DNA from: Tannockella kyphosi
GTDB taxonomy: Bacteria; Bacillota_I; Bacilli_A; Erysipelotrichales; Coprobacillaceae
Direction of reading: 5' to 3'
Length of the DNA stretch: 32,000 nt
Assembly (NCBI RefSeq): GCF_021054785.1
Contig: NZ_CP088239.1
Location: 780,001 to 812,000, forward strand
Part shown: one piece after another, positions 2,641 through 29,514 of the stretch
How the letters are laid out: each line of letters starts with the position of its first letter
How positions within the stretch are numbered: the stretch's first letter is position 1
The notes under the pieces: model-generated
Seen by the model: only the letters and a program-made list of their open reading frames with translations
Told to the model about the DNA's origin: nothing
Databases searched by the model: none
Position numbers and translations under genes: made by a program

Positions 2641-2741
2641 ATTCAACAAACTCATTTAGATGATTTCAATAATAAGTTATTTATCATTCTTTTTTAAAGC
2701 AATTTTTAAGTTTCAAACGTATATATTATTGAGGTGATTTG

Positions 2742-4787
2742 ATGAATAAAGGAATATGTTATCAAGATGATATAACGAGTTGCGGTAGTGCTTGTGTGCA
2801 AATGATTTTACTTCATTTTCAAAGAAGAGTAGAGTTAAAAGAAATAAAACATTATTGTAAGAATAATGATAATGGGACAAGTGTATATGGAATGTTACAG
2901 TGTTTAAAACACTATCATTTACAAAGCAAAGCTTATCATGCTTCATTAGATGATATTCAAGCAAACGGGAAATACCCTTGTATTGTTTTAATGCTTCACA
3001 AAGATTTATATCATTATGTTGTTTTGTATAAACTAGAAAAAGGAATAGTTTTTATAAAAGATCCTGGAGAAGGTTATATTAAGATGACGATAAAAGAGTT
3101 TGAAAAAGCATATCAAGGGACAGTTATTATGATAGAAGAAGTAGGTATTCCATTAGAAAAAGAATCTTTTCATTCTATTTATCAATTTTATAAAGAACAT
3201 TTAAAAGATCAAAAAATAAATATCTTAAAAATATCTGGATTTACTATCTTAGTAACAATAGGAAATATATTATTATCTTATTATTTTCAAATATATATAG
3301 ATACTTTGTTAGAAACGTCACTATTTTATTTTTTAAGTATAACGTGTATCTTTGTTGTAATTTATGTTATAAAGGCATTATTACATTATGGTCATCAAAT
3401 ATGTTTAGAGTATATTTATAAAGAAAATAATGAAAAGTATATTTTACGGACAATGCAAAATATGCTATATCTAAAAACAAGTGATATCCAAAAACAAAAA
3501 GTAGGAACTTTAATGAACAAAATAAAGGGCTTATCTTCGATGACAAAATTTATGAGTAATTTATATAGTGTTTTGTTTATTGATAGTGTCATCTTAATTA
3601 GTGTTTTTCTAGTCCTTTTTTATCAAGGGAGGGGCTTTGCGTTATTTTTTATAGTAGATATGTTTGTTATGATGATTATTACTTATTATTTAATGAAAAG
3701 AATACAAAAAAGTACTCGTAAAAATATTGTAAAAGAAGATGAAGTGAATACTGTATTTTTAGAAGGTTGTGAGAATTTGATGAATATTCAACAATTTGGA
3801 TATCGTACTTTTTTTAAAGAAAAGCTTCAGCATTTTTATACTGCTAGTCAATATTATGAAGTGGAAAAAAATAAAGATTATTATTTATTAGAGTTCGTCA
3901 TAGAATTAGTAATCCAGGGAAGTATGTATATCATGATGATTTATTGTTATTTCTTATTTCGTCAAGATATGATTAGTGTTGGTAAGATTTTCTTTATTTA
4001 TATGTTGATAAGTTATTGTATGGAACCAATGGTAGAAATTGTCTCTTTGTTTTTAGAATGGAAACAACAAACTATTATTTTTTCAAGATACAAAGATTTA
4101 CTTCCTAATAAACAACATAAGACAAAGAAAATAAAAAAGATTGTTAGTTTAGAGTGTAATTACATAAGTTATAGTTACGATTATCATAGAACTATCTTTT
4201 CTAAGTATGATATCCTGATTGATAAGTCCATTATACTTAGTGGAGAAAATGGTTGTGGTAAAACTACATTATGTCATTTGTTAATGGGATTTGATCAAGT
4301 AGATAGTGGAGAAGTGCTGATTAATGGGATCAATATACAAGAGATTGATCAAGCAAGTTTGTATAAAAGGATGATTTATTTACATAAAAATCCAGCTTTT
4401 TTTCATGAAACAGTCTTGTTTAATATCATTGGTTATCGTCAAGAGTTACGTGAAAGTGCTATTGAGTTATTGCAACTATTTCAAAGTAATGATATTATAG
4501 AAAAACTGGATTTAATAATGGATAGTGATAACTTTTCAAGTGGACAATTACAGTTAATCATGCTAGTCCGTGCTTTCGTTATTAATCCAGATGTTTTAAT
4601 ACTAGATGAAGCTACTAGTAATGTAGATAAAATAAAGGAAAAGCTTATATTTGACTATTTAGAAACGAAACAAGAAAATATGATTATAATACTGATAAGT
4701 CATCATACAAAGTTAGTGAATCTTGACTTTGAATATGTTATAATTAATAAAATTCAAAAAGAAGTAGGAGAGACCAATGGAAATTGA
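2742..4787 (+). CDS. Peptidase C39 domain-containing ABC transporter (bacteriocin / double-glycine peptide exporter type)
   Basis: N-terminal C39 motifs: Q..ITSCGSACVQMIL (catalytic Cys) and HYVVLYK...DPGEG (His/Asp). Central multi-TM domain. C-terminal NBD with Walker A GENGCGKTT, signature-like FSSGQLQL, Walker B VLILDEATS and H-loop ISHH. I prefer the ATG at 2742 (GAGGTG RBS 5 nt upstream) over the TTG at 2739 in the ORF track. Confidence 0.8.
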   Translation: MNKGICYQDDITSCGSACVQMILLHFQRRVELKEIKHYCKNNDNGTSVYGMLQCLKHYHLQSKAYHASLDDIQANGKYPCIVLMLHKDLYHYVVLYKLEKGIVFIKDPGEGYIKMTIKEFEKAYQGTVIMIEEVGIPLEKESFHSIYQFYKEHLKDQKINILKISGFTILVTIGNILLSYYFQIYIDTLLETSLFYFLSITCIFVVIYVIKALLHYGHQICLEYIYKENNEKYILRTMQNMLYLKTSDIQKQKVGTLMNKIKGLSSMTKFMSNLYSVLFIDSVILISVFLVLFYQGRGFALFFIVDMFVMMIITYYLMKRIQKSTRKNIVKEDEVNTVFLEGCENLMNIQQFGYRTFFKEKLQHFYTASQYYEVEKNKDYYLLEFVIELVIQGSMYIMMIYCYFLFRQDMISVGKIFFIYMLISYCMEPMVEIVSLFLEWKQQTIIFSRYKDLLPNKQHKTKKIKKIVSLECNYISYSYDYHRTIFSKYDILIDKSIILSGENGCGKTTLCHLLMGFDQVDSGEVLINGINIQEIDQASLYKRMIYLHKNPAFFHETVLFNIIGYRQELRESAIELLQLFQSNDIIEKLDLIMDSDNFSSGQLQLIMLVRAFVINPDVLILDEATSNVDKIKEKLIFDYLETKQENMIIILISHHTKLVNLDFEYVIINKIQKEVGETNGN

Positions 4788-5238
4788 TTTAGCGTATTTA
4801 GATGAAGATAATTTATTATCTACTAATTATCAAGAAATATATGAAAATATTATTCGTGAAGCTTGCAATCATCTACAGTTAGTAGATGATTTAGAACTAT
4901 CTTGTATTATTGTAGATGATCATAAAATTCATGAAATTAATAAAGAATATCGAAACATTGATCGTTCTACCGATGTTATTAGTTTTGCTTTAGAAGATAA
5001 TGAACAATTTTATTGTCCAGGTCAGCCTAGGTGTTTAGGAGATATATTTATTTCAAATGAACATGCGATTAGTCAAGCTAAGGAATACAATCATACATTA
5101 GATCGAGAAATGTGTTTTTTGTTTACTCATGGACTATTGCATCTATTAGGTTATGATCATATGGAAGAAAAAGAAGAACAAGAAATGATTGCGTTACAAA
5201 AGATAATATTAGATAAAGTAGGAATGGAGAGAGTATAA
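4777..5238 (+). CDS. ybeY: Endoribonuclease YbeY (rRNA maturation factor)
   Basis: 153 aa with the zinc motif HGLLHLLGYDH. GGAGAG RBS. Overlaps the ABC transporter gene by 11 nt. Confidence 0.9.
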   Translation: MEIDLAYLDEDNLLSTNYQEIYENIIREACNHLQLVDDLELSCIIVDDHKIHEINKEYRNIDRSTDVISFALEDNEQFYCPGQPRCLGDIFISNEHAISQAKEYNHTLDREMCFLFTHGLLHLLGYDHMEEKEEQEMIALQKIILDKVGMERV

Positions 5239-5633
5239 TGGACTATCAAGATTTAATGAATAGAGCACTAGAAGCAAGAAAAAATGCATATAATCCTTAT
5301 TCTAACTATGGTGTTGGTGCTTGTGTAGCGTTAAAAGATGGCACTTTTATTGTTGGGGCCAATATTGAAAATGCAGCCTATGGATCAACAATGTGTGCAG
5401 AACGTAATGCGATTTATGCAACATATAGCCAAGGATATCGTAGAAATGATATTCTCGCAATTGCAATAGCTGGCAAAGGAGATGATGTTTGTACACCTTG
5501 TGGAGCATGTCGTCAAGTCTTAGCAGAATTGTTAGATAAACATACACCAGTTATTTTATCAAATGAAGAAAAATATATTGTTACGAATATGGAAGAATTA
5601 TTACCAAGAATGTTTACAGGAGAATTTTTATAA
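5238..5633 (+). CDS. cdd: Cytidine deaminase
   Basis: 131 aa with zinc-ligand motifs CAERNA and PCGACRQ. TAATG stop/start overlap with ybeY. Confidence 0.9.
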   Translation: MDYQDLMNRALEARKNAYNPYSNYGVGACVALKDGTFIVGANIENAAYGSTMCAERNAIYATYSQGYRRNDILAIAIAGKGDDVCTPCGACRQVLAELLDKHTPVILSNEEKYIVTNMEELLPRMFTGEFL

Positions 5634-6526
5634 TGTTTAAATCAGGATTTATTAGTATTGTAGGGAGACCTAACGTAGGAAAATCAACTTTATTGAATGG
5701 TATTTTAGAAACGAAATTAGCGATTATGTCAGATGTTGCACAGACTACTAGAAATACGATTCAAGGAATATATACAGATGAACAATCACAAATGATTTTT
5801 ATGGATACACCAGGTATCCATAAACCTCAAGATCGATTGGGAACTTTTATGAACTCAACTGCATTAAATAGTATTTTTGGAGTAGATGTTGTCTTGTTTA
5901 TGGCACCATGTAATGAGGCTATAGGAAAAGGCGATAAGTTTATTTTGGAAAGACTAAAAGAAGCAGATGGTCCAGTATTTTTGATTTTATCAAAAATAGA
6001 TTTGTTACCAAGAGAAAAAGTAATGGAAAAATTACAAGAATGGACTTCGTTATATGATTTTAAAGAGATTATTCCAATAAGTTCTTTGGAAAATAACAAT
6101 ATTACTACTTTATTAGATGTAATTAAACAATATTTACCAGAAGGACATATGTATTATCCAAAAGATCAAATGACAGATCATCCAGAACGTTTTGTAATGG
6201 CTGAGTTTATTCGTGAAAAGATTTTATATTTTACAAGAGAAGAAGTACCACATAGTGTTGCTATTGTGATTGAAAGAATGCAAGTAGCAGAAGATGGGGT
6301 GATGGAGATATATGCAACCATTGTTGTAGATCGTCAAAGTCAAAAAGGGATTATCGTAGGGAAACAAGGTGCGATGATTCAAAAAATCCGTAAAAATGCA
6401 AAAAGAGATATGACTCGTTTTTTACAGACACAAGTTCATTTAGAGTTGTTTGTAAAAGTAGAACGTGATTGGAGAAATAAGGAGAAATACTTAAAAGAAT
6501 TTGGTTATAACGAAGATGACTACTAA
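5633..6526 (+). CDS. era: GTPase Era
   Basis: 297 aa with G1 GRPNVGKST, G3 DTPG and G4 SKID, plus a C-terminal KH domain (VGKQGAMIQKI). TAATG overlap with cdd. Confidence 0.92.
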   Translation: MFKSGFISIVGRPNVGKSTLLNGILETKLAIMSDVAQTTRNTIQGIYTDEQSQMIFMDTPGIHKPQDRLGTFMNSTALNSIFGVDVVLFMAPCNEAIGKGDKFILERLKEADGPVFLILSKIDLLPREKVMEKLQEWTSLYDFKEIIPISSLENNNITTLLDVIKQYLPEGHMYYPKDQMTDHPERFVMAEFIREKILYFTREEVPHSVAIVIERMQVAEDGVMEIYATIVVDRQSQKGIIVGKQGAMIQKIRKNAKRDMTRFLQTQVHLELFVKVERDWRNKEKYLKEFGYNEDDY

Positions 6527-7256
6527 ACAAAGTGAAGTAGTCGAAGGTTTTGTTTTAAAGAGTACTCCTTATAAAGAAAGAGATGTTTTATTACAAGTAT
6601 ATACCAAGGAATATGGGAAAATAACAATTCATGCAAGAGGTATTCAAAGTCCTAAAAGTAAAAATAGAGCAGCTTGTTTAACCTTAACTTTGTCACAATT
6701 TACGATTATTTATAAAGAAGGTATTTCTAGTTTGGTAAAAGCTAGTATTATTCATGAATATCGTATTTTAAAACAAAGTATTGAATTGGAAATTTTTGCT
6801 AGTTTTATCTTAGAGTATTTATTAGTAATGACAGAAAGTCATGAACCAGACAGTGATATTTATCAAAATGCTTTTATAGCTTTTGAAAAGTTAGAACAAG
6901 GTTATTCCTATTATTTGATTTATGCACTATTTATTGCTTTTATTTTACGTATTCATGGTTGTTCATTAGTGGTGGATGGTTGCATAGAATGTGGAAGAAA
7001 GGATCATTTGACTAGAATTAGTTATAGTGGTGGTTTTGTTTGTGAAGAGTGTGCAACTAAGTTTGATAAACCTTATGATTTAGATGTTTTAAGAGCTTTT
7101 CGTTATATCAACTTATGTCCTATGGATAAAGTAGACTGTTTAGATATGGAGGAAGCAATTATTTTAGAAGTTGCAAAAACAATGCAACAGTTTTTAGATG
7201 AGTTTAGTGGTATAAATTTTAAAACTAAAAAATTTATAAAATCACTTTTAATTTAG
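6516..7256 (+). CDS. recO: DNA repair protein RecO
   Basis: OB-fold N-terminus (VEGFVLKSTPYKERD) and a zinc-finger-like C..C...C..C (CIECGRK...VCEECA). Conserved position after era. The start is uncertain: ATG 6516 is preferred, while the ORF track uses TTG 6501. Confidence 0.8.
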   Translation: MTTKQSEVVEGFVLKSTPYKERDVLLQVYTKEYGKITIHARGIQSPKSKNRAACLTLTLSQFTIIYKEGISSLVKASIIHEYRILKQSIELEIFASFILEYLLVMTESHEPDSDIYQNAFIAFEKLEQGYSYYLIYALFIAFILRIHGCSLVVDGCIECGRKDHLTRISYSGGFVCEECATKFDKPYDLDVLRAFRYINLCPMDKVDCLDMEEAIILEVAKTMQQFLDEFSGINFKTKKFIKSLLI

Positions 7257-7281
7257 AGTTTCAAAGAAAGAGAGAGAATAC

Positions 7282-9156: not shown

Positions 9157-10080
9157 ATGAAAAACAGTGGAACATTTACATCGTGCACAAATACACATTT
9201 ATATTATGATTTATACGTTCCACAGATCTTTATTAGACCCCGTGGTATTGTTCAAATTCACCATGGTTTAGGTGAATATCGAGATCGATATATTAATTTT
9301 GCAAAATTTTTAAGACAAGAAGGTTATATTGTAGTGATTATTGATTTTCCTGGTCATGGAACATCCTTATATCAATTTGAACAAGGCTATTTTGGAGAAG
9401 GAATGATTCAAGATACGCTTGTTAAAGATATTCATCATGTTTTGATGACAACAAAAGAAGCTTATCCTGATTTGCCTTATTTCATCATAGGTAACCAGTT
9501 TTCAACACTTGTTGTAAGACAATATTTAAGTCTTTATGGGGAATTTGTTGAAGGAGCTATCTTAATTTCTCCGGGACATTTTCATGATTATAAGACATTT
9601 TGTCGCTATGTTAAGATTAGTGAAATGTTAAAAGGAAATATGTATCGTAGTAAAAGAGTAAAGAGAATATTAGATTATCAGTTTAATCAAGAGTTACAAG
9701 GGGATTCTAATACAGCTAATTATTTAACTGGTGATATAGAAGAATTGGATGCTTATTTAGAAGATCCAATGACAAATTTTGTTTATACCAATAAAGCTTA
9801 TCATCAAATTATTCAATTATCAAAGTTGGTAAATTCGGCCAGTTATTTCCAAAATGTTATTCATGATGTTTCCATTTATTTTATAAGCGGAAAATTTGAT
9901 AACTTTGGTAAAGAAGGAAAAGTAGCAAAACAATTATTTGAAAAATATAAAAAAGCAGGAGTCATTGATGTAGACTTCCAAACATTTGATAGTAAAAGAC
10001 AAGACTTATTACATGAGGTAAATAAAAGTGAAGTATATGAAAATATATTAGCTTGGCTAAATGCACGTACCTTTATGTAA
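9157..10080 (+). CDS. Alpha/beta hydrolase fold protein (lysophospholipase / monoacylglycerol lipase-like) with a degenerate nucleophile elbow
   Basis: 307 aa. HHGLGEY oxyanion region, DFPGHGTS, and C-terminal GKFDNF and LLHE (acid and His positions). The expected GHSMG elbow reads GNQFS. Confidence 0.65.
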   Translation: MKNSGTFTSCTNTHLYYDLYVPQIFIRPRGIVQIHHGLGEYRDRYINFAKFLRQEGYIVVIIDFPGHGTSLYQFEQGYFGEGMIQDTLVKDIHHVLMTTKEAYPDLPYFIIGNQFSTLVVRQYLSLYGEFVEGAILISPGHFHDYKTFCRYVKISEMLKGNMYRSKRVKRILDYQFNQELQGDSNTANYLTGDIEELDAYLEDPMTNFVYTNKAYHQIIQLSKLVNSASYFQNVIHDVSIYFISGKFDNFGKEGKVAKQLFEKYKKAGVIDVDFQTFDSKRQDLLHEVNKSEVYENILAWLNARTFM

Positions 10081-15364: not shown

Positions 15365-16112
15365 AGACATCATGAATTACTTAGAAACATATTTTCCACT
15401 AGATTTACAATTATCTTTTGATAAATGTGGGTTACAAGTAGGAAATTTAAATCAAGAAGTAGATAAAGTAATGGTTTCCTTAAACTGTGATCAACAAACA
15501 ATAGATAGTGCAATAGCACAAAATTGTTCAATGCTTATCTCTCATCATCCTTTATTATTAGATAAACACGATGCTATTGATACATCTGTTTCTTTTGGTA
15601 AATTTGTTGAAAAAGCAATAAAAAATGATATCGTAGTATGTAGTTTGCATACTTGTTTAGATCGTGGTATGAATGGTATTTCGATGAATGACTGGTTGAT
15701 TTCTTTATATGATGTGCATCATATAGAATGTTATGATGAAGTTCAAATAGGAAAAAAAGCGATTTTAAAAACACCAATGATGTTTGATGATTTTCTAACT
15801 AAAACAAAAGAAGTATTTCAAATTAATACTTTAAAAGTAGCAGGTAGAAAAGATAAATTGATTGAAAGAATTGGTATTTGTGGTGGTAGTGGTAGTGATG
15901 AAATAACTGCTTGTAAAGGACAAGTAGATGCTTTTATTACAGGTGATACTAAATATCATCATGGACAATTTGCTTATGAAAACGATATTGTATTCATTGA
16001 TGTTGGACATCATGTTGAAGTTATTGTTGAAAAAGAGTTAATAAAAATATTAAAAAACTTACCAATTCAAGTATTATCAATGGATAGTCAAGATTATTTT
16101 GAATATAAATAG
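15354..16112 (+). CDS. yqfO: Nif3-like dinuclear metal centre protein (YqfO/YbgI family), short form
   Basis: 252 aa. NIF3 motifs ISHHPLL and TGDTKYHH. Overlaps trmK by 11 nt, with a GAAGGTG RBS. The length resembles E. coli YbgI rather than the longer Bacillus YqfO. Confidence 0.8.
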   Translation: MIAKDIMNYLETYFPLDLQLSFDKCGLQVGNLNQEVDKVMVSLNCDQQTIDSAIAQNCSMLISHHPLLLDKHDAIDTSVSFGKFVEKAIKNDIVVCSLHTCLDRGMNGISMNDWLISLYDVHHIECYDEVQIGKKAILKTPMMFDDFLTKTKEVFQINTLKVAGRKDKLIERIGICGGSGSDEITACKGQVDAFITGDTKYHHGQFAYENDIVFIDVGHHVEVIVEKELIKILKNLPIQVLSMDSQDYFEYK

Positions 16113-16135
16113 AGTAGCTATTGCTACTTTTTTTA
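16113..16135 (+). terminator. Intrinsic terminator after yqfO
   Basis: AGTAGC / GCTACT stem, loop TATT, then T7, immediately after the TAG stop. Confidence 0.7.
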
Positions 16136-16153
16136 TATTTTGTCTAACTAATA

Positions 16154-16182
16154 TTGACATCTACTTGGATATTGCATATAAT
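16154..16182 (+). promoter_or_regulatory. Consensus sigma-A promoter
   Basis: TTGACA (16154-16159), exactly 17 nt of spacer, TATAAT (16177-16182). The predicted start is near G16189. Confidence 0.7.
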
Positions 16183-16199
16183 TAATGCGTGAGGTACTT

Positions 16200-16280
16200 T
16201 AAAATTGTATCGGTAAAACCATCGCAAGGTGGTGACACAAAGCTATAGGGACTCGATGGAGTCAGCCAGTTGCAAATCAG
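16200..16280 (+). promoter_or_regulatory. c-di-GMP-I (GEMM-I)-like riboswitch aptamer
   Basis: The core CGGTAAAACC-ATC-GCAA-GGT-GGTGACACAAAGCT-ATAGG-GACTC-GATG-GAGTC-AGCCAG parallels my memory of V. cholerae Vc2 (GGGCAAACC-AUUC-GAAA-GAGU-GGGACGCAAAGCC...). Shared elements are a GNRA-capped hairpin ACCATC/GGTGGT, an ACRCAAAGC junction, a second hairpin with an internal loop, and a 3' AGCC. It is GC-enriched relative to its flanks. Not verified with a covariance model. Confidence 0.65.
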
Positions 16281-16306
16281 TTTAGAAAACAAGGTTTGCT
16301 TTTTTT
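16272..16306 (+). terminator. Putative riboswitch expression-platform terminator
   Basis: GCAAATC (16272-16278) pairs with GGTTTGC (16293-16299; one G-U pair), followed by T7 (16300-16306). The 5' arm overlaps the 3' flank of the aptamer. An alternative AT-rich pairing is GAAAACAA / TTGTTTTC. Confidence 0.5.
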
Positions 16307-16435
16307 GTTTTCAAAAAGCTATTTCATCGTTTTACTATATTAAAAGTTAAACTATGAAGCTCCCAACTATCATATTTTAATTTTTAATCCATTTGGAAAT
16401 GATATGATACTTAGTACATTCAAAATTTCCAATCA

Positions 16436-16465
16436 AAAAGACTATACCCCCCGGTATAGTCTTTT
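16436..16465. terminator. Bidirectional intrinsic terminator; homing site of intron copy 1
   Basis: AAAAGACTATACC / GGTATAGTCTTTT stem with loop CCCC (9 bp GACTATACC/GGTATAGTC core), an A-run upstream and a T-run downstream. The intron 5' end lies 2 nt after the T-run. Confidence 0.7.
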
Positions 16466-16467
16466 AA

Positions 16468-18353
16468 GTGTGCCAGGCATGGTATACATCTAAGTGGTGA
16501 AAGTCCACCGTGGGGAATAGTCGCCAACCACTAGTCGAAGTCAAGGGTGTCCATCGTGAGGCGGAATCTGAAGGAAGAATTAGACAAAACTCTGGTCTTA
16601 GGAACACGAACTATATCAGGCAGGAGATAAGAGACAAGTGTGCTTAACAACACAAAATCTAACAGACTATGAAGTACTTATCTAATGTAAATATAGAAGA
16701 TATATGGAGGGAAAGATGTATAGCCTTACCCTGGGAGGTCTCACAAGCGAGAAAGTAGTAACAACGAATTGTGAGAAGTCAGCCGAGGTCGTAGTAGTGA
16801 GGAAGTACCTGTAATGGGTATGGAGCAAAGGACTGAACAGATTTATCAGTTAAAGAACTGTCAAATTGCACCGGTATGTGTAACTCGAGGACAAGAGTGA
16901 AACTAGAATAGTGAGTAAACAAGAACGGAGGAAAGCTATAAGTCAACATACAGGAAACGAAAGGAAGGGAAGTAACGAAATATGGAAACAGAAAGAAATG
17001 AATTACTTAATCAACTGCTTAGTGAAGAAAATATGATAGAAGCATATAAGCAAGTCAAACGAAATAGAGGAGCTAGTGGAATAGATGGTATGGAAGTAAC
17101 TGAGTTAAAGGAATACCTAGAAGAACACGGCGAAGAAATTAAAGAAGAGATAAGAACAAGGAGATATAAACCTAGTCCGGTAAGAAGGGTAGAAATACCA
17201 AAAGAGAATGGTGGAGTAAGATTACTTGGAATACCAACAGTAAAAGATAGAATGGTACAACAAATGATAGTGCAAGTATTAACACCAATCTATGAACCAA
17301 TATTTAGTGAACATAGCTATGGGTTCAGACCGGGTAGAAACTGTGAAATGGCAATCATAAAAGTGTTAGAGCACATGAATGAAGGATTGCATTGGATAGT
17401 AGATATTGACTTAGAGAAATTCTTTGATAATGTTCACCATGATAAACTAATTCGACTAGTGAGTCAACAGGTAAAAGATGGTGATGTAATATCCCTAATT
17501 AGAAAATTCCTAAGAAGTGGAATCATGATTGATGACGAATATAAAGAATCAACAATCGGAACGCCACAGGGCGGAAATCTTAGTCCATTATTATCAAATA
17601 TTATGCTTGATGTGTTGGATAAGGAATTAGAGGCAAGAGGACTTAATTTCGTAAGATATGCAGATGATGTGCAAATATTGGTAGGAAGTCAAAAAGCAGC
17701 AAATAGAGTAATAGAGAATGTGAGTAGGTACATAGAAAAGAAACTAGGATTAAAAGTAAATATGACAAAAAGCAAAGTCAACAAACCAGAGGGTACAAAA
17801 TACCTAGGGTTTGGATTTTACTATGATAAACTTCAAAAGACCTATAAAGCGAAACCACATAAACTTTCTGTAGAAAAACTGAAAAGAAAACTGAAGCAAC
17901 TTACAAGCCGGAATTGGGGAGTGAGCATGGACTACAGACTACTAAAGATAAAGCAATTGATAGTAGGATGGGTCAACTACTTTAGAATAGCGAGTTTTAA
18001 GAAAGTGTGCAAACAAATAGATGCACATACACGGTTTAGACTTAGAATGTGCATATGGAAACGATGGAAAAGAATAGGTACAAAATACAGAGCACTAATA
18101 AAACTAGGAGTAAACAAATATAAAGCATGGGAATGGGCGAATAGCAGAAAAGCATACGCACGAGTTGCCATGTCATATATCATGTGTAGAACGGTAACGA
18201 ACGATAGACTAAAGAAAAGAGGTCTAGTATCACTACTAGACCAGTATCAGTTAAAACATATTTTAGTATAAATTTGAACCGCCGTACACCGAACGGTACA
18301 TACGGTGGTGTGAGAGGACGATAAATAAATTAATTATTTATCTCCTACTCGAT
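16468..18353 (+). mobile_element. Group II intron, copy 1 (bacterial class C / IIC-like), 1886 nt
   Basis: Starts with GTGTG. The 5' ribozyme segment is 514 nt and GC-richer than its surroundings. The RT/maturase ORF sits in domain IV. A domain V-like hairpin spans 18278-18309 (ACCGCCGTA...TACGGTGGT). A domain VI helix spans 18311-18351 with a bulged A at 18347, 7 nt before a 3' ...GAT end. Inserted just behind a terminator hairpin. Boundaries were set by where the two copies stop matching (+/- 1-3 nt). Confidence 0.85.
16982..18271 (+). CDS. Group II intron reverse transcriptase/maturase (no endonuclease domain)
   Basis: 429 aa. RT motifs GIPTVKDRMVQQ, GFRPGRNCEMA, TPQGGNLSPLLSNI and the catalytic YADD (VRYADDVQIL). 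Maturase/X domain (LIVGWVNYFR). The protein ends without an HNH/En domain. Confidence 0.92.
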   Translation: METERNELLNQLLSEENMIEAYKQVKRNRGASGIDGMEVTELKEYLEEHGEEIKEEIRTRRYKPSPVRRVEIPKENGGVRLLGIPTVKDRMVQQMIVQVLTPIYEPIFSEHSYGFRPGRNCEMAIIKVLEHMNEGLHWIVDIDLEKFFDNVHHDKLIRLVSQQVKDGDVISLIRKFLRSGIMIDDEYKESTIGTPQGGNLSPLLSNIMLDVLDKELEARGLNFVRYADDVQILVGSQKAANRVIENVSRYIEKKLGLKVNMTKSKVNKPEGTKYLGFGFYYDKLQKTYKAKPHKLSVEKLKRKLKQLTSRNWGVSMDYRLLKIKQLIVGWVNYFRIASFKKVCKQIDAHTRFRLRMCIWKRWKRIGTKYRALIKLGVNKYKAWEWANSRKAYARVAMSYIMCRTVTNDRLKKRGLVSLLDQYQLKHILV

Positions 18354-18354
18354 T

Positions 18355-19206
18355 TTAGCATAATTTATATTTTAACATAGTTTCATATATGCCATCTTCA
18401 TGACTACAAGCACAAACTTCATCTGCAATTTCTTTTAACTTTTCTTTTGCATTACCCATTGCTATTCCGGTATGACAATATTCAAGCATTTCAATATCAT
18501 TTAATCCATCACCAAAAGCAAAAGTATTTTCTTTATTAATGCCTAAATAAACAAGCGTATCATGAATAGCTTTTGCTTTATTAATATCTAATAAAGAAAG
18601 CTCACCACTATTATTACCAAAGATTGGAACAGTACAATGATGAATTGTAAAATGATTTGAAAACTGTTGTATTATTTTTTCAAAAGAAACATTCGTATTT
18701 TCTAAAAAACATATTTTTGTTATATCATTACGTAACATGGTTTGATTCGTTTGTAATGCATTAATAAAATGACTACTTTTTGATTCTTTTCTTTTTTTAG
18801 CATCTATATCATGATGATAATCTCCATAAATAAGAAACTCCAGTCTTTCCACTAAATTCTTACTAGCAAACAATCCACCATTTGATTCTAAATAATAATC
18901 AAAGTTATACTTTTCAAAATAATCTAGTACATTTAAAACATCCTGTTTTGAAAAACAATGGTGATATAAAACTTCTCCTAGTATTTCAACATATCCACCA
19001 CCAGCACCTATCAAGCCATCAATACCCAAATCCCAAATAAAGTCATAAACTTCAGGTTTAGAACGACCAGTACATAAAAATACGTAATTCCCTTTTTTTC
19101 TAGTTAGAGCAATTGCTTCTTTTGTTTTTTCTCTTATCCTTTCTATTCCATTTTCTTCATAGACAAGGGTACCATCAATATCAAAAAATATTATTTTCTT
19201 TTCCAT
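18355..19206 (-). CDS. Cof-type HAD-IIB family phosphatase
   Basis: 283 aa. HAD motif I FFDIDGTL, motif II CTGR, motif IV GDGLNDIEM. AGGAGA RBS. The stop codon lies 1 nt from the intron copy 1 3' end. Confidence 0.85.
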   Translation of the reverse strand: MEKKIIFFDIDGTLVYEENGIERIREKTKEAIALTRKKGNYVFLCTGRSKPEVYDFIWDLGIDGLIGAGGGYVEILGEVLYHHCFSKQDVLNVLDYFEKYNFDYYLESNGGLFASKNLVERLEFLIYGDYHHDIDAKKRKESKSSHFINALQTNQTMLRNDITKICFLENTNVSFEKIIQQFSNHFTIHHCTVPIFGNNSGELSLLDINKAKAIHDTLVYLGINKENTFAFGDGLNDIEMLEYCHTGIAMGNAKEKLKEIADEVCACSHEDGIYETMLKYKLC

Positions 19207-19366
19207 TTTTCTTTTCTCCTATTGTTAGATTAACATAGTTATTCTTATATTTACTTTTTTTTCTTTTTAAGAATTTGAAATTAGTTTTGTGTTTACTAAA
19301 AAATAGTGTATCATGTTTTTATGCTTTTTAAGATAGGGGATAAAGTATTTATACTTTAATAAAAAA

Positions 19367-20704
19367 ATGAGAAAAAGAGAAATTAATTTAATAGATGGGG
19401 TTATTTGGAAATCTATTTTATTTTTTGCAATGCCATTATTAATTGGTAATTTATTTCAACAAATGTATAGTACCGTTGATTCTTATGTAGTTGGTAATTA
19501 TGTTGGGACCACGGCACTAGCTTCAGTTGGAGCTAGTACACCAATTATTAATGTGTTAATAGGATTTTTTATGGGACTTTCAGCTGGAGCAGGAGTTGTT
19601 ATAGCGCAAAGATATGGTGCTAGAAACTTAGAAGGTGTAAAAACAGGGATTCATACAGCAATGGCATTAACCATTTTTATGACCGTTGTTTTAACAATTA
19701 TTGGTGTTTTTGTTTGTGATGATATTTTACGGTTAATAGCTGTTCCAGATGATATATTTCAAACATCCTATTTATATTTAAAGATATATTTTTTAGGAAT
19801 TGGTTTTACTTTATTGTATAATCTAGGCTCAGGGGTTTTAAGAGCGTTAGGGGATAGCAAAAGACCTATCTATTTTTTGATTATTGCTAGTATTTTAAAT
19901 GTTATTTTAGATATTTTATTTGTAAAATATCTAGGAATGGGAGTTGCAGGAGTTGCTATAGCAACAATGATTTCTCAAGCAGTAAGTTCTTTTTTAGTGT
20001 TGTTAGTATTACTTAATTTAGATTATGCTATTAGATTAAATATTAAAAAAATAGCTTTTGATTATCCAACACTTATTAAGATGATTAAAATTGGGTTACC
20101 GACAGCTATTCAACAAAGTGTTATTTCTTTATCGAATGTAATAGTTCAATCTTATATTAATACATTTGGATCTTATGTAGTAGCAGGATACTCAGCAGGT
20201 TTACGTATCGATGGTTTTATTGTGTTACCAGTTCAAAGTATCAATATGTCTATTACAACCTTTGTAGGACAAAATATTGGTGCTAAAAAATATGATCGTG
20301 TTAAAAAAGGGGCACGTTGTGCTTTGATAATGTTAGCAATTATTATTTTCGTACTTTGTGTATTTTTATATCTGTTTGGCGAAGCTGCACTTGCCTTGTT
20401 TGATAGTACTCCAGAAGTAGTAGCTGCAGGTAGAACATTACAACTTTGTTTTATTCCTTTTTATATTATTTTGCCTATTGTACAAGTATATAGTGGTGTA
20501 TTATATGGAGCTGGAAAATCTACGATACCAATGTGTTTAACTATTTTTAATTTTGTAATATTAAGACAAATTTATTTATATATTATGGTTCCAATAACGG
20601 GATCATTGGCAACCATATTCTATGGTTGGCCCATCACTTGGATTACGTGTGCCATTATGTTTTTAATATATTATCATCGTGTTTCTTGGTTACCCGAAGA
20701 ATAA
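19367..20704 (+). CDS. MATE family efflux transporter
   Basis: 445 aa, about 12 hydrophobic segments, and a typical MATE N-terminus (LIDGVIWKSILFFAMPLLIGNLFQQMYSTVDSYVVG). No clear SD sequence upstream of the ATG. Confidence 0.85.
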   Translation: MRKREINLIDGVIWKSILFFAMPLLIGNLFQQMYSTVDSYVVGNYVGTTALASVGASTPIINVLIGFFMGLSAGAGVVIAQRYGARNLEGVKTGIHTAMALTIFMTVVLTIIGVFVCDDILRLIAVPDDIFQTSYLYLKIYFLGIGFTLLYNLGSGVLRALGDSKRPIYFLIIASILNVILDILFVKYLGMGVAGVAIATMISQAVSSFLVLLVLLNLDYAIRLNIKKIAFDYPTLIKMIKIGLPTAIQQSVISLSNVIVQSYINTFGSYVVAGYSAGLRIDGFIVLPVQSINMSITTFVGQNIGAKKYDRVKKGARCALIMLAIIIFVLCVFLYLFGEAALALFDSTPEVVAAGRTLQLCFIPFYIILPIVQVYSGVLYGAGKSTIPMCLTIFNFVILRQIYLYIMVPITGSLATIFYGWPITWITCAIMFLIYYHRVSWLPEE

Positions 20705-20736: not shown

Positions 20737-22623
20737 GTGTGCCAGGCATGGTATACATCTAAGTGGTGAAAGTCCACCGTGGGGGAATAGTCGCCAACCA
20801 CTAGTCGAAGTCAAGGGTGTCCATCGTGAGGCGGAATCTGAAGGAAGAATTAGACAAAACTCTGGTCTTAGGAACACGAACTATATCAGGCAGGAGATAA
20901 GAGACAAGTGTGCTTAACAACACAAAATCTAACAGACTATGAAGTACTTATCTAATGTAAATATAGAAGATATATGGAGGGAAAGATGTATAGCCTTACC
21001 CTGGGAGGTCTCACAAGCGAGAAAGTAGTAACAACGAATTGTGAGAAGTCAGCCGAGGTCGTAGTAGTGAGGAAGTACCTGTAATGGGTATGGAGCAAAG
21101 GACTGAACAGATTTATCAGTTAAAGAACTGTCAAATTGCACCGGTATGTGTAACTCGAGGACAAGAGTGAAACTAGAATAGTGAGTAAACAAGAACGGAG
21201 GAAAGCTATAAGTCAACATACAGGAAACGAAAGGAAGGGAAGTAACGAAATATGGAAACAGAAAGAAATGAATTACTTAATCAACTGCTTAGTGAAGAAA
21301 ATATGATAGAAGCATATAAGCAAGTCAAACGAAATAGAGGAGCTAGTGGAATAGATGGTATGGAAGTAACTGAGTTAAAGGAATACCTAGAAGAACACGG
21401 CGAAGAAATTAAAGAAGAGATAAGAACAAGGAGATATAAACCTAGTCCGGTAAGAAGGGTAGAAATACCAAAAGAGAATGGTGGAGTAAGATTACTTGGA
21501 ATACCAACAGTAAAAGATAGAATGGTACAACAAATGATAGTGCAAGTATTAACACCAATCTATGAACCAATATTTAGTGAACATAGCTATGGGTTCAGAC
21601 CGGGTAGAAACTGTGAAATGGCAATCATAAAAGTGTTAGAGCACATGAATGAAGGATTGCATTGGATAGTAGATATTGACTTAGAGAAATTCTTTGATAA
21701 TGTTCATCATGATAAACTAATTCGACTAGTGAGTCAACAGGTAAAAGATGGTGATGTAATATCTCTAATTAGAAAATTCCTAAGAAGTGGAATCATGATT
21801 GATGACGAATATAAAGAATCAACAATCGGAACGCCACAGGGCGGAAATCTTAGTCCATTATTATCAAATATTATGCTTGATGTGTTGGACAAAGAATTAG
21901 AGGCAAGAGGACTTAATTTCGTAAGATATGCTGATGATGTGCAAATATTGGTAGGAAGTCAAAAAGCAGCAAATAGAGTAATAGAGAATGTGAGTAGGTA
22001 CATAGAAAAGAAATTAGGGCTAAAAGTAAATATGACAAAAAGCAAAGTCAACAGGCCAGAGGATACAAAATACCTAGGGTTTGGATTTTACTATGATAAA
22101 CTTCAAAAGACCTATAAAGCGAAGCCACATAAACTTTCTGTAGAAAAACTGAAAAGAAAACTGAAACAACTTACAAGCCGAAATTGGGGAGTGAGTATGG
22201 ATTACAGACTACTAAAGATAAAGCAATTGATAGTAGGATGGGTCAACTACTTTAAAATAGCGAGTTTTAAGAAAGTGTGCAAACAAATAGATGCACATAC
22301 ACGGTTTAGACTTAGAATGTGCATATGGAAACGATGGAAAAGAATAGGTACAAAATATAGAGCACTAATAAAACTAGGAGTAAACAAATATAAAGCATGG
22401 GAATGGGCGAATAGTAGAAAAGCATACGCACGAGTTGCCATGTCATATATCATGTGTAGAACGGTAACGAACGCTAGACTAAAGAAAAGAGGTCTAGTAT
22501 CACTACTAGACCAGTATCAGTTAAAACATATTTTAGTATAAATTTGAACCGCCGTACACCGAACGGTACATACGGTGGTGTGAGAGGACGATAAATAAAT
22601 TAATTATTTATCTCCTACTCGAT
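20737..22623 (+). mobile_element. Group II intron, copy 2 (class C / IIC-like), 1887 nt
   Basis: Colinear with copy 1 at an offset of 4269-4270 nt. By my manual alignment there are 20 substitutions plus one G-run indel (GGGG at 16512-16515 versus GGGGG at 20781-20785). Same GTGTG 5' end and ...CTACTCGAT 3' end. Confidence 0.85.
21252..22541 (+). CDS. Group II intron reverse transcriptase/maturase, second copy
   Basis: 429 aa, differing from copy 1 at 4 residues (K to R and G to D in VNKPEG/VNRPED; R to K in YFRIAS/YFKIAS; D to A in TNDRLK/TNARLK). YADD is intact. Confidence 0.92.
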   Translation: METERNELLNQLLSEENMIEAYKQVKRNRGASGIDGMEVTELKEYLEEHGEEIKEEIRTRRYKPSPVRRVEIPKENGGVRLLGIPTVKDRMVQQMIVQVLTPIYEPIFSEHSYGFRPGRNCEMAIIKVLEHMNEGLHWIVDIDLEKFFDNVHHDKLIRLVSQQVKDGDVISLIRKFLRSGIMIDDEYKESTIGTPQGGNLSPLLSNIMLDVLDKELEARGLNFVRYADDVQILVGSQKAANRVIENVSRYIEKKLGLKVNMTKSKVNRPEDTKYLGFGFYYDKLQKTYKAKPHKLSVEKLKRKLKQLTSRNWGVSMDYRLLKIKQLIVGWVNYFKIASFKKVCKQIDAHTRFRLRMCIWKRWKRIGTKYRALIKLGVNKYKAWEWANSRKAYARVAMSYIMCRTVTNARLKKRGLVSLLDQYQLKHILV

Positions 22624-26589: not shown

Positions 26590-29514
26590 ATGATACTTAT
26601 CTATTGTGCAAAAATAATAGGTCAGTATTTAATATATAAAGACAATTTATTCCATGATAGAACAAAAAAGAATCATACGGAATATTTGTTAGAAGGGGTG
26701 TGTAATGTGTTGAAAAAATATTTATTTATTATTTTCTCTTTTCTATTATGTTTATTGTCATTAGGGAAGATACAAGCAGTTGCTTTTAATGAACCAACAG
26801 TAGTAAAGGTAGGGTATAGTGAGGTAACTGGTTTTGTTAATGATCCAATCATTAGTGGTAGAGAAGGATACGGTTATGAGTATTTTAATAAAATTGCTGA
26901 ATATTTAGACGGAGATTATATTTTTGAATATGTCATGTGCAAGGAAGATACTATTTTAGATATGTTAGAAAGTGGAGTTATTGATATTGCTACTCCTTAT
27001 TTTAAAGAACAAATTAATGAACAAGATTTTCTTGTTAGTTCTAATGATTTTGGAGAAAATATTGCTTTTTTATGTACTACCAATGAAGAGATAGTAGATA
27101 TTACTAGTTTAGATGGTAGTACAATAGGAGTATATAAAGGAGATCCTAATATTTCATTAATTGATGAGTTATTAACAACTTATGGTTATCAAGCAAATAT
27201 AGTGCTTTTTGATCAATATGATTATTATAAAGACTTAGATAATAACCAATGTGATTACTGTTTAGTTTATTCTATGTCTCCAAATATGAACTTAGAAATA
27301 GTAATGAAATTAGAAGCATTTCCTTTTTATTTTATAACTACAAATGAAAACCAAGAATTAATGAATGATCTAAATGATGCAATGAAAAATATAAAAAGCT
27401 ATGAGTTTTTATATCAAGAACAGTTATATTTAAAATATTATCAATACCAAATAAGTACTAACACTTATATTTCTGATCAGGAATTAGCGTTACTACAGGC
27501 AGAGAGTTCTTATTGTGTTGGGATACATCTTTTACATAGTCCTTTTTCTTATTTAGATAGTGAAGGACAATTACAAGGGATTGTTGTTGATTTTTTAGAA
27601 TTGCTTGAAGATAAGGCTGGGGTTCATTTTGATAAGTACATCATTGAAGGAAATGATACGACAATGTATGATTTTACGATGTTATATTCCAATGAAGATG
27701 TCTTATTAAATAGTGGATTAAGTTATTCTTTTTTAGAACAACCTTTGGTTTTATTAGAAAATAGTGGTGAGAGAGTTAATAATTATGTAGGATCATTATC
27801 TTATTATGGAGTTGATCCACAATATTTACAACTTGAATTTGGTAGTGAAAATATAATAGTATATGAAAATTTAGCTAGTATGCAAGAGGCGTATGAAGAA
27901 AATCAAATCCAAGAAATGATTTTAACATCATCAGCACTTAGTTATATTAATTCATCAGTAGATAGTCAAAATTATTATATAAATCCTTTGGATATGTCTA
28001 TTAGTTTTTCTATTGATTTTTCTAGTTCAATGAGTAATACAAGTATTCATAGTTTTAATAAGTTAATTGCTTCTATCGATGATGATATGATGGAGTATAT
28101 TGTTTTAAAACATTCTTATGCTCTAACTAATTCTTTTTCTTTAGTAACGTATTTACAAGATAATCCATTATATGTGATGGCTTTATTTGCTTTGATAGTT
28201 GTTGTCTATTTTATTTTTGAACTAAATAAAAGAAAAGAATTATTAAATGCAATCTATTTTGATAAACTAACAGGTCTATACTCACTAGAAGGTTTTAGAC
28301 ATGTTTTAAAAACAAGAATGAATCAAAAGAAAAATAATCATTATTATTTAGTATCAATTGATATTGATAATTTCAAATATATTAATGAGTTGTGGGGATT
28401 TGAAACAGGTACAAAAGTTATCAAAAAGAATGCTTCATTTATTAAAGATAAGTTACAGAAATCAGATGTAATAGCACGAATTAGAGGAGATCAGTTTATT
28501 ATCTTATTACAAAGAGAGAATGGTCTTTTATTAGATAGTAATATTATAATAAAAGATAGTACTATCTTCGATGACTTAGAAAAAATGATAGGAGAAAATT
28601 TTGTTTTTTCTTATAGTGTTGGGGTGTATGAAATTCAAAATTGTAAATTAGATACAAATTTTATGATTGATTGTGTTGATTTTGCACGTAACAAAGGAAA
28701 AGCGTTTAGTGAAGATACTGTTTTTTATTTTGATAATGAAGTATTGGATGAAAGAACAAAGAATGCCCAAATAATAACAAGTATGAATTATGCTATTCAA
28801 GAAAAAGAGTTTATTTTATATTATCAACCAAAGGTTGATTTACATACAAATAAGATAGTAGGGGCTGAAGCATTAGTTCGTTGGTATAAAAATAATGCTT
28901 ATATTTTACCTTCTAATTTCATACCTATTTTTGAGAAAAATGGTTTTATTGAAAAACTTGATTATTATATATTTGAAACTGTTTGTCAATTTATTGTAGC
29001 AAATAAGGATATTGATTTACCAATTATTTCTATTAATATGTCTGGATTTACCATTACCAAAGGAAATGTTTTATCAAAATTAAAAAGTATTCTAACCAAA
29101 TATGATGTATCTCCTAATAAAATAGATATTGAATTAACAGAGACTGCATTTATTGATAATGGAGATATTGTTATTAATACTTTGAATGAATTAAGGAATT
29201 ATGGTTTTACTGTTTCGATGGATGACTTTGGGGCAGGTTTATCTTCGTTAACAAGGTTAAAGAGTATTACCATTGATACTTTAAAAATAGATCGTGAGTT
29301 AATTGTAGAAAATAAAACAAATCATAAAGGAACTAGTATTTTGAAAAATATTCTTTCCTTAGCAAAAGATATTCAAGTTACTACTGTTGGTGAAGGTATT
29401 GAGACATTTGAACAATTAGAGTTATTAAAATCTTTAGGATGTGATATTGGACAAGGATATTATTTTTATAGGCCTTTATGTGAAGATGATTTTAAAAAAG
29501 AATTGCAGCAATAA
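26590..29514 (+). CDS. Membrane c-di-GMP phosphodiesterase: tandem extracytoplasmic solute-binding (SBP family 3-like) domains, TM segment, degenerate GGDEF domain, EAL domain
   Basis: A signal-peptide-like KKYLFIIFSFLLCLLSLGKIQA begins about 40 codons into the ORF, so alternative starts GTG 26707 or TTG 26710 (behind GAAGGGG) are possible. ATG 26590 also has an AGAGGA RBS. The GGDEF site reads RGDQF. The EAL motifs are intact (EALVRW, SINMS, ELTET, DDFGAG, KIDRE, GEGIE, GQGYYF). Confidence 0.85.
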   Translation: MILIYCAKIIGQYLIYKDNLFHDRTKKNHTEYLLEGVCNVLKKYLFIIFSFLLCLLSLGKIQAVAFNEPTVVKVGYSEVTGFVNDPIISGREGYGYEYFNKIAEYLDGDYIFEYVMCKEDTILDMLESGVIDIATPYFKEQINEQDFLVSSNDFGENIAFLCTTNEEIVDITSLDGSTIGVYKGDPNISLIDELLTTYGYQANIVLFDQYDYYKDLDNNQCDYCLVYSMSPNMNLEIVMKLEAFPFYFITTNENQELMNDLNDAMKNIKSYEFLYQEQLYLKYYQYQISTNTYISDQELALLQAESSYCVGIHLLHSPFSYLDSEGQLQGIVVDFLELLEDKAGVHFDKYIIEGNDTTMYDFTMLYSNEDVLLNSGLSYSFLEQPLVLLENSGERVNNYVGSLSYYGVDPQYLQLEFGSENIIVYENLASMQEAYEENQIQEMILTSSALSYINSSVDSQNYYINPLDMSISFSIDFSSSMSNTSIHSFNKLIASIDDDMMEYIVLKHSYALTNSFSLVTYLQDNPLYVMALFALIVVVYFIFELNKRKELLNAIYFDKLTGLYSLEGFRHVLKTRMNQKKNNHYYLVSIDIDNFKYINELWGFETGTKVIKKNASFIKDKLQKSDVIARIRGDQFIILLQRENGLLLDSNIIIKDSTIFDDLEKMIGENFVFSYSVGVYEIQNCKLDTNFMIDCVDFARNKGKAFSEDTVFYFDNEVLDERTKNAQIITSMNYAIQEKEFILYYQPKVDLHTNKIVGAEALVRWYKNNAYILPSNFIPIFEKNGFIEKLDYYIFETVCQFIVANKDIDLPIISINMSGFTITKGNVLSKLKSILTKYDVSPNKIDIELTETAFIDNGDIVINTLNELRNYGFTVSMDDFGAGLSSLTRLKSITIDTLKIDRELIVENKTNHKGTSILKNILSLAKDIQVTTVGEGIETFEQLELLKSLGCDIGQGYYFYRPLCEDDFKKELQQ

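Follow-up and report, generated by a model that had tools for sequence, protein, structure and literature searches.

A 32,000-nucleotide (nt) stretch of the Tannockella kyphosi genome (NCBI RefSeq assembly GCF_021054785.1, contig NZ_CP088239.1, positions 780,001 to 812,000 of the forward strand; referred to as the window, with positions counted from its first letter) contains a riboswitch of the c-di-GMP-I (GEMM-I) family for the second messenger cyclic di-guanosine monophosphate (c-di-GMP). This riboswitch unit, which has its own promoter and is followed by two terminators, T1 and T2, is left without protein-coding cargo, and next to it lies a class C group II intron. We give a slightly better than even chance to the reading that it is a c-di-GMP-I riboswitch unit of ON type which was stranded without its cargo gene, the intron having homed to T2 at a later time. 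The unit and its immediate surroundings consist of the following elements:

16111 to 16130, forward strand: intrinsic terminator of the dnaG-sigA-trmK-NIF3 operon (terminator scan; -9.1 kcal/mol)
16154 to 16182, forward strand: sigma-A-type promoter TTGACA-17-TATAAT, agreeing with the consensus at 12/12 positions
16202 to 16277, forward strand: c-di-GMP-I (GEMM-I) aptamer (Rfam family RF01051, 55.3 bits; gathering score 35)
16272 to 16306, forward strand: T1, the expression platform, a hairpin GCAAAUC...GGUUUGC followed by U7 (RNAfold, -6.0 kcal/mol)
16339 to 16388, forward strand: AU-rich hairpin with the apical loop CUCCCAA (inverted repeat and fold, -9.8 kcal/mol)
16393 to 16432, forward strand: hairpin with a perfect stem of 8 base pairs (bp) (16393-16400 / 16425-16432) and 24 nt between its arms (inverted repeat and fold)
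16436 to 16467, both strands: T2, a strong bidirectional terminator formed by a 13-bp perfect palindrome flanked by A and T runs (inverted repeat, -15.7 kcal/mol)

In the favoured reading, transcription would begin near 16189. Without ligand, T1 would form and transcription would stop at about 16306, yielding an RNA of ~118 nt. On binding of c-di-GMP, the aptamer would take up C16273, G16272 and the short 3' strand of helix P1 (A16274-A16275); T1 would then lack the two G-C pairs that hold it, and the polymerase would read on. Such read-through would in related riboswitches lead into a gene whose product is secreted or located at the surface, and here into 130 nt of AU-rich RNA and then T2. 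Most plausibly, the cargo gene was lost from a turnover-prone slot between NIF3 and a gene of the HAD family, the alternative being a partial duplication that brought in no more than the leader of a riboswitch-gene cassette; the class C intron would have inserted later behind T2.

The identity of the aptamer was established with the covariance models of Rfam 15. Five matches in the window exceeded the curated thresholds; four of these belong to two copies of the group II intron, and the fifth is the c-di-GMP-I match. It lies on the forward strand and covers the RF01051 model over its full length (1-87) with an E-value of 2.2e-8, calculated for the whole 32-kb window against 4227 families. An initial annotation made from the DNA letters had proposed a GEMM-I-like aptamer and named this covariance-model comparison as a check; the score, which lies above the gathering score, and the ligand contacts described below bear the proposal out. 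Both aptamer hairpins, ACCAUC-GCAA-GGUGGU (first) and GACUC-GAUG-GAGUC (second), were returned by RNAfold with every pair canonical. The loop of the first hairpin, GCAA, is of the GNRA type; the classical 11-nt receptor is absent. Residues equivalent to ligand contacts of the Vc2 aptamer were placed via the Vc2/Vc1 correspondence (PMC4744006) and via alignments to the RF01051 and RF03167 models. They are canonical in each case:

G16212, forward strand: equivalent of Vc2 G20
A16239, forward strand: equivalent of Vc2 A47
C16273, forward strand: equivalent of Vc2 C92
C16236-G16265, forward strand: equivalent of C44-G83, the universally conserved inter-helix pair of Vc2

On every feature that is testable in silico the element is a genuine c-di-GMP-I riboswitch, and the aptamer is probably still ligand-competent. 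It is established for GEMM-Ib riboswitches that the choice of ligand follows the residue at position 20 (G or A). By analogy, the G found at the equivalent position argues for c-di-GMP rather than 3'3'-cGAMP (cyclic GMP-AMP) as the ligand.

Two features that might have pointed elsewhere were considered and rejected. The short second hairpin with its CUAUAGGG/AGCCAG internal loop is not a sign of decay; it is common to about 120 metagenomic homologues and is the standard form in a widespread subtype. Membership in the c-di-GMP-I-GGC family (RF03167) was dismissed on the basis of a score of 48.2 bits against a cut-off of 59 and of a canonical A at a place where the variant has G (signature stretch around A47: GACACAAAG in the window, GACGCGAAG in the RF03167 consensus). 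Despite its sub-cut-off score, the RF03167 model shows the better E-value and is the one displayed in clan competition under permissive filters. An exact 25-mer of the aptamer had no match in JGI metagenomes or IMG/VR.

The consensus promoter claimed in the initial annotation was found as described: TTGACA-17-TATAAT at 16154-16182 is the only 12/12 match within 15500-19500, and it is identical in five same-species contigs of the Logan collection. The start of transcription near 16189 is predicted from its position. The open reading frame (ORF) of NIF3 ends at 16112, and the operon terminator at 16111-16130 would shield the riboswitch unit from upstream transcription.

At the 3' side of the aptamer, RNAfold confirmed T1, i.e., the hairpin plus T7 at 16272-16306 that had been noticed to overlap the aptamer flank. 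It comprises 7+4 bp at 16272-16299 and a U7 tract up to 16306; a simple terminator scan missed it, presumably since that scan accepts loops of 3-8 nt only. The 5' arm of T1, GCAAAUC (16272-16278), opens one base before the C92 equivalent and spans the two-pair P1 3' strand A16274-A16275. Its two basal G-C pairs use G16272 and C16273, and their removal changes the folding energy from -6.0 to 0.0 kcal/mol. Because T1 needs these pairs, and because its 5' arm holds both the C92 equivalent and the P1 3' strand, fold energies and model alignment indicate that the expression platform and the ligand-bound aptamer are mutually exclusive. From this exclusion follows the prediction of an ON switch, in which c-di-GMP would relieve termination and allow read-through.

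A further complementarity was observed next to the platform. The segment 16318-16340 (GCUAUUUCAUCGUUUUACUAUA), located after T1, is complementary to the aptamer parts 16213-16222 and 16243-16266, and in the predicted minimum-energy structure of the long transcript it takes the place of the second aptamer hairpin. The complementarity may reflect an anti-aptamer element, or it may be due to chance.

Beyond the aptamer, the stretch 16278-16467 contains no open frame, and stops occur in all frames. The only ATG-led frames are one of 8 codons without a Shine-Dalgarno (SD) sequence and one of 29 codons that runs through both arms of T2, and no gene remnant was seen in six-frame translations of the post-aptamer stretch. 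The initial annotation had stated that no ORF follows, that a hairpin with a 24-nt loop is present at 16392-16433 and that a second strong bidirectional terminator comes next; all three elements of this description hold, the stem of the hairpin being measured as 8 perfect bp (16393-16432). The interval between T1 and T2 is 130 nt long, AU-rich and folded into the two hairpins listed above, of which the one at 16339-16388 has a CUCCCAA loop that resembles the anti-Shine-Dalgarno sequence. The palindrome arms of T2 occupy 16436-16448 and 16453-16465. T2 is the terminator of the convergent HAD gene, whose stop codon directly abutted it before the intron inserted, and at the same time the target motif of intron copy 1.

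How unusual this arrangement is became apparent from metagenomic relatives. At least 120 metagenomic loci with an aptamer of this subtype were collected by means of a degenerate pattern of its core; 92 of them have at least 1 kb of downstream sequence and served as comparators. An ORF of at least 80 amino acids (aa) starts within 700 nt of the riboswitch in 89 of them (median distance 97 nt). The other three (L140, L160, L175) are followed by SD-led ORFs of 50-58 aa without a Pfam match, possibly small proteins under c-di-GMP control. The window has neither type of ORF, irrespective of whether the intron is counted in or out. The orphan state is exceptional, because 92 of 92 comparators have a coding gene just downstream. 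Most of the cargoes inspected have an N-terminal hydrophobic segment, which suggests secretion or anchoring; the inspected set includes one GGDEF-EAL protein and one secreted nuclease. No NCBIfam names were found for the cargoes of homologues with the same platform.

Cargo in the form of a hidden small protein is conceivable, e.g., one encoded by the frame starting with ATG 16404 (22 codons before intron insertion, 29 now), and we consider it extremely unlikely. In its favour, three of the comparators have cargo ORFs no longer than 50-58 aa, as just described, and a GGA lies 5-7 nt upstream of this ATG. Yet the frame crosses both arms of T2, its start is located in the stem of the hairpin 16393-16432, and its C-terminus was changed by the insertion of the intron. 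Moreover, it lacks a real SD sequence, whereas the small-ORF comparators have GGGGG or GGAG.

The metagenomic relatives were also compared with respect to their platforms. A terminator beside a T-run is present in 78 of 114 same-subtype riboswitches. In 25 of these 78, which represents the most common layout, the C92 equivalent lies 1-3 nt past the start of the terminator stem, as is the case for T1. The closest aptamer is that of L162/L185 (89% over 64 nt), a non-syntenic locus of an organism with 37.5% GC. The L162 riboswitch (9871-10060, minus strand) precedes a secreted Endonuclea_NS_2 nuclease, and its platform is clearly of the OFF type, with an antiterminator in which CAGUUGCA pairs with UGCAACUG of the terminator.

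The genomic slot occupied by the riboswitch was then viewed in Coprobacillaceae relatives. NIF3 homologues were found by an alignment-based rescan of genome contigs; a genome-contig scan with the NIF3 protein alone had returned no match. The homologues place the organism in Coprobacillaceae (Erysipelotrichales), near Thomasclavelia, the nearest relative showing 68% NIF3 identity (Logan assemblies) and named genomes at most 55%. The order dnaG-sigA-trmK-NIF3, HAD (minus strand), MatE (plus strand), ispH (minus strand) forms a conserved backbone, in which the junction between NIF3 and HAD is variable:

L012, L026: slot empty, the genes abutting with about 30 nt between them
L013 to L015: a second HAD gene and a GGDEF protein
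L031: a GGDEF protein
L024, L027: surface proteins with immunoglobulin-like (Ig-like) domains
L006: an 880-nt leader without Rfam match and a FecR-domain protein
L023: a c-di-GMP-I riboswitch and a surface protein

In the closest relative (68% NIF3 identity, L006-L011), no riboswitch was detected even at E <= 10. The riboswitch and its protein gene in L023 (Erysipelatoclostridium sp. AM42-17, NZ_QUIN01000021.1) are located at 4799-7264, and the region around them comprises, in this order, the NIF3 terminator, a promoter, the c-di-GMP-I aptamer (62.5 bits), a terminator, an SD sequence, a gene for a 761-aa protein, a bidirectional terminator and HAD. The 5' arm of its terminator sits in the second aptamer helix (the 3' hairpin of the model), which is an ON design. 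In the 761-aa protein, PA14 and SHIRT domains are accompanied by a signal peptide and, at the C-terminus, by a membrane anchor (...QINTGDQTQIVLYCIIAVIALLGIVIIIKKAHK). NIF3 of L023 and that of the window are 53% identical, and the two HAD proteins are 55% identical without gaps; the gene that follows HAD in L023 is, to judge by its position, probably MatE. From these sequence features, the same slot in a related genus appears to hold a riboswitch-controlled adhesin. Because the slot turns over and one relative has such an adhesin in it, cargo loss or partial duplication is the likeliest history of the window unit.

Two observations on the slot were not used in this argument. A first impression from a MAFFT alignment that the promoters of the window and L023 are homologous was discarded, as the similarity of promoter and leader is not significant. 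In L025 (Thomasclavelia cocleata DSM 1551), a borderline group-II-D1D4-3 match (4892-5061; 32.2 bits against a threshold of 32) lies after the NIF3 terminator and is followed by an AAA_21 (AbiEii-like) ATPase, not by a reverse transcriptase (RT). The match may represent a fragment of an intron, or else it is spurious.

Same-species contigs bear on the choice between the two histories. The five conspecific contigs that contain NIF3 and the promoter (L001-L005) end at 16183, 16241, 16248, 16249 and 16249, and the seven conspecific contigs from the HAD side all end 27-30 nt inside the multi-copy intron. One single-nucleotide polymorphism was found, at 16194, with G in the window and A in four conspecific contigs. 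The species is represented in the sequencing runs SRR26879380-90 and SRR27046588-95. Logan contigs are assemblies made with k=31, and the positions at which they end suggest either that almost the same aptamer sequence (from about 16220) occurs a second time elsewhere in the genome or that a variant is fixed at 16250. The question of a second copy bears directly on cargo deletion versus partial duplication: if the 31-mer AACCATCGCAAGGTGGTGACACAAAGCTATAG recurs in front of a gene, the orphan would be a partial duplicate and the lost cargo would be named.

The region downstream of T2 is characterized by the intron, which is present in two copies, and by the HAD gene:

16468 to 18353, forward strand: class C (IIC) group II intron, copy 1 (RF02001, 119.9 bits; RF01998, 41.4 bits)
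16982 to 18271, forward strand: RT/maturase ORF of intron copy 1 (RVT_1 and GIIM, no endonuclease domain)
18355 to 19206, reverse strand: HAD-family (Hydrolase_3) gene, convergent (Pfam)
20737 to 22623, forward strand: intron copy 2, behind the MatE terminator (repeat family, empty-site allele)

Copy 1 starts at 16468, 2 nt past T2, in agreement with the earlier description of a class C intron that immediately follows the second terminator. The best solved relatives of the RT are the maturase 7uim (E 2.4e-169), the RTs 5hhj/5hhl (E about 1e-130) and the GsI-IIC RT (E 3e-115). We take 7uim, 5hhj and 5hhl to be IIC proteins of Eubacterium rectale and Roseburia intestinalis; the search itself names only GsI-IIC. 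Inspection of the 3' end showed that domain V has CGC in place of the AGC of other classes. Neither intron RT had a record in exact-protein look-ups. Both copies start with GUGUG, 2-4 nt past the T-run of a terminator, namely T2 in the case of copy 1 and the MatE terminator in the case of copy 2.

An empty site corresponding to copy 2, ...CGCTTTTTATAA/TATTTGAGAC (the slash marks the junction), is present in the conspecific Logan contig L016 (2380-2440, reverse strand), the flanks of which match the window at 100% (2409 nt) and 99.8% (1992 nt) identity. The limits of copy 2 were taken from this site and those of copy 1 by register from copy 2. Insertion of copy 2 altered the last codons of ispH/LytB (328 aa versus 327 aa). 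Because copy 2 is absent from a natural strain that has the exact empty site, the intron has been mobile recently. The two copies differ by 20 substitutions, all of them in the 3' half of the RT ORF (17437-18204 versus 21707-22474), and their first ~970 nt and last ~150 nt are identical save for one G in a G-run at 16511. In view of the 20 differences, copy 1 is no obvious donor of copy 2; the distribution of these differences suggests mosaic copies or gene conversion with further copies elsewhere.

Class C introns are documented to insert at terminator motifs whatever the neighbouring genes do (PMC4424553, PMC7306698). The presence of the intron beside the riboswitch needs no regulatory explanation, because T2 is a terminator and hence a class C target, and the adjacency of the two elements is most likely coincidental. 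Control of intron copy 1 by c-di-GMP, with read-through of T1 and T2 supplying the precursor and the RT mRNA, was weighed as an alternative. The riboswitch promoter is the nearest plus-strand promoter to the 5' splice site (314 nt), the NIF3 operon being separately terminated. Class C introns are rarely transcribed (PMC7306698) and would depend on read-through of the terminator that they follow. In addition, copy 1 is present in 7/7 conspecific contigs, while copy 2 occurs in some strains only. However, copy 2 has no riboswitch upstream, and terminator targeting suffices to account for the insertion of copy 1 behind T2. T2 is also strong, with a 13-bp perfect stem. We judge control of the intron very improbable; any coupling would be an accident of insertion and not a selected arrangement. 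The idea in the initial annotation that a second messenger could control the intron, taken as a designed arrangement, is not supported in view of these points, of the recent mobility of the intron and of the position of both T1 and T2 before the 5' splice site.

The annotation had further suggested antisense transcription over HAD. Before the intron inserted, read-through at high c-di-GMP could have repressed this convergent gene, whose stop codon on the opposite strand lies about 190 nt from the aptamer when the intron is removed, and antisense orientation is more enriched among c-di-GMP riboswitches than in any other riboswitch family (152/2,706; PMC9943018). This history is highly improbable, as T1 and then the strong bidirectional T2 lie between aptamer and HAD, and the proposed transcription would need read-through of T2. 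The two elements are now separated by the 1.9-kb intron, and in L012 and L026 NIF3 and HAD are adjacent without any riboswitch. Decidedly unlikely, too, is a working ON switch that has non-coding outputs only, i.e., a change from a ~118-nt to a ~280-nt structured RNA together with read-through into intron copy 1. If this were true, a retroelement would be expressed, and would possibly spread to further terminators, in step with a biofilm second messenger.

Several observations weigh against a stranded unit with lost cargo. The riboswitch of L023 would be an ortholog by position only, since the aptamer of the window is much closer in sequence to that of L162, and the flanks of the window and L023 aptamers are no more similar to each other than shuffled sequences (74/500 and 103/500). 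A remnant of an adhesin gene was not detected in 16307-16435, where local alignment to the L023 gene was no better than with shuffles. T1 falls far short of the homologous terminators in stability (-6 versus -12 to -15 kcal/mol), and gating by such a weak terminator may be leaky. The stretch 16307-16435 folds better than shuffled sequences on the plus strand (z -3.2; 2/200) and less so on the minus strand (z -2.0), and the computed fold hints at a structured RNA module. Finally, the perfect promoter and the intact aptamer and T1 fit continued function as well as they fit a very recent loss.

The last two points lead to an alternative in which the unit encodes a riboswitch-gated small RNA (sRNA). 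It would be made in a ~118-nt form ending at T1 or a ~280-nt form ending at T2, and the 3' module of the latter would have mRNAs or proteins as its targets in trans. From the promoter through aptamer, T1 and two hairpins to T2, the layout is that of a complete stand-alone transcription unit, neither promoter nor aptamer shows decay, and the region between the terminators has the excess of structure just mentioned. The C-rich apical loop (CUCCCAA) resembles seed motifs of Firmicute sRNAs, and the adenosylcobalamin (AdoCbl)-gated EutX/Rli55 RNAs provide a parallel for an sRNA under riboswitch control. On the other hand, no homologue of 16278-16467 was found in JGI metagenome loci, the loci of relatives, plasmids or phages, so that support from conservation or covariation is lacking for this stretch, and the whole riboswitch cassette gave no blastn match in plasmids or phages. 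Comparison of the inter-terminator stretch with Rfam revealed no sRNA family and nothing else beyond terminator-driven noise, and 92/92 comparators of the same subtype control protein genes. We therefore regard the sRNA as possible though unlikely. The initial annotation had listed a noncoding RNA of ~250 nt among the potential outputs; an RNA of ~280 nt is possible, and the comparative data lend it no support.

A related alternative is a c-di-GMP sponge or storage RNA, in which an abundant aptamer RNA would buffer the ligand. Its model is merRNA of Bdellovibrio bacteriovorus, an orphan c-di-GMP riboswitch RNA without a conserved downstream ORF that was proposed to sequester its ligand, a role which its authors call speculation (PMC3627812). 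Both RNAs have a c-di-GMP-I aptamer in a non-coding transcript devoid of an ORF, with a strong promoter implied, and the aptamer of the window indeed stands behind a perfect consensus promoter. The proteobacterial merRNA is 445 nt long and was shown to be massively expressed, whereas the window element has a putatively regulated terminator and is unrelated to merRNA outside the aptamer. Since T1 competes with the ligand-bound fold, the terminated short form would not be an optimal binder, and evidence of conservation was not obtained; a sponge is very unlikely.

The stranded-unit reading is best viewed against known c-di-GMP-I riboswitches with terminator platforms in Firmicutes. With these (L023 and the 25 metagenomic loci with the T1 layout) the window element shares the subtype core GCUAUAGGG...AGCCAGUUGC, the GNRA-capped first hairpin, the canonical contacts, a competing terminator, an own promoter and a c-di-GMP-using Firmicute as host. 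It differs from them in that it has no gene, a weaker T1 (-6 versus about -13 kcal/mol) and a second strong terminator 130 nt further on. An ON switch of this class is Bc2 of Bacillus thuringiensis, which controls a collagen-adhesion protein.

Other systems show parts of the arrangement. In Bc1 of the Bacillus cereus group, a downstream terminator masks the response of the first one, resulting in a riboswitch without measurable regulation (PMC11218506). Bc1 and the window element both consist of a c-di-GMP-I aptamer followed by two intrinsic terminators; those of Bc1 are 28 bp apart and precede genes, while those of the window are 130 nt apart with nothing coding after them. EutX/Rli55, the antisense RNA AspocR of Listeria and antisense-acting riboswitches (PMC9943018) have in common with the window an early terminator that chooses between a short and a long non-coding RNA, and a convergent gene downstream. 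The long form predicted for the window differs in that it has no recognizable module such as ANTAR sites, antisense transcription would be blocked by a strong terminator, and nothing is conserved. The orphan condition thus has precedents in merRNA, in antisense-acting riboswitches and in the non-responsive dual-terminator Bc1.

The tandem of c-di-GMP-II riboswitch and group I ribozyme in Clostridioides difficile, which the initial annotation named as a precedent, likewise places a c-di-GMP aptamer beside a self-splicing intron. In that tandem, aptamer and ribozyme are parts of a single structure, within which the aptamer governs the choice of splice site. In the window, by contrast, two terminators separate the elements, the intron is a mobile class C element with a second copy, and the aptamer is of class I; the tandem is a poor analogue for this locus.

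Elsewhere in the window, one gene relates to the ligand and two features do not touch the riboswitch:

26590 to 29514, forward strand: 974-aa SBP_bac_3-GGDEF-EAL protein (Pfam EAL 8.8e-62, GGDEF 2.4e-21)
2739 to 4787: Peptidase_C39 ATP-binding cassette (ABC) transporter of the bacteriocin-exporter type
Block downstream of this transporter: putative ybeY-dgkA-era-recO, names which we assume from position and length

The first of these is the EAL gene that had been noted 10 kb away from the riboswitch. Its domain composition marks the product as a putative c-di-GMP turnover enzyme linked to a periplasmic binding domain, and shows at the level of sequence that the organism has such enzymes.

The riboswitch described here is an ordinary member of a well-known class, and its value lies in that it is a clean natural case of a riboswitch without a gene. 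Promoter, aptamer and platform are intact in a slot where relatives keep surface proteins that appear to be controlled by c-di-GMP. A riboswitch that neighbours a class C intron should not be read as regulation of this intron, because class C introns go wherever there is a terminator. If read-through is still gated by the riboswitch, the locus would offer a simple system in which to look for an incidental effect of a second messenger on retroelement expression. More generally, orphan riboswitches inflate regulon predictions that are based on riboswitches, and they could serve as starting material for the evolution of ligand sponges or of non-coding RNAs gated by a ligand.

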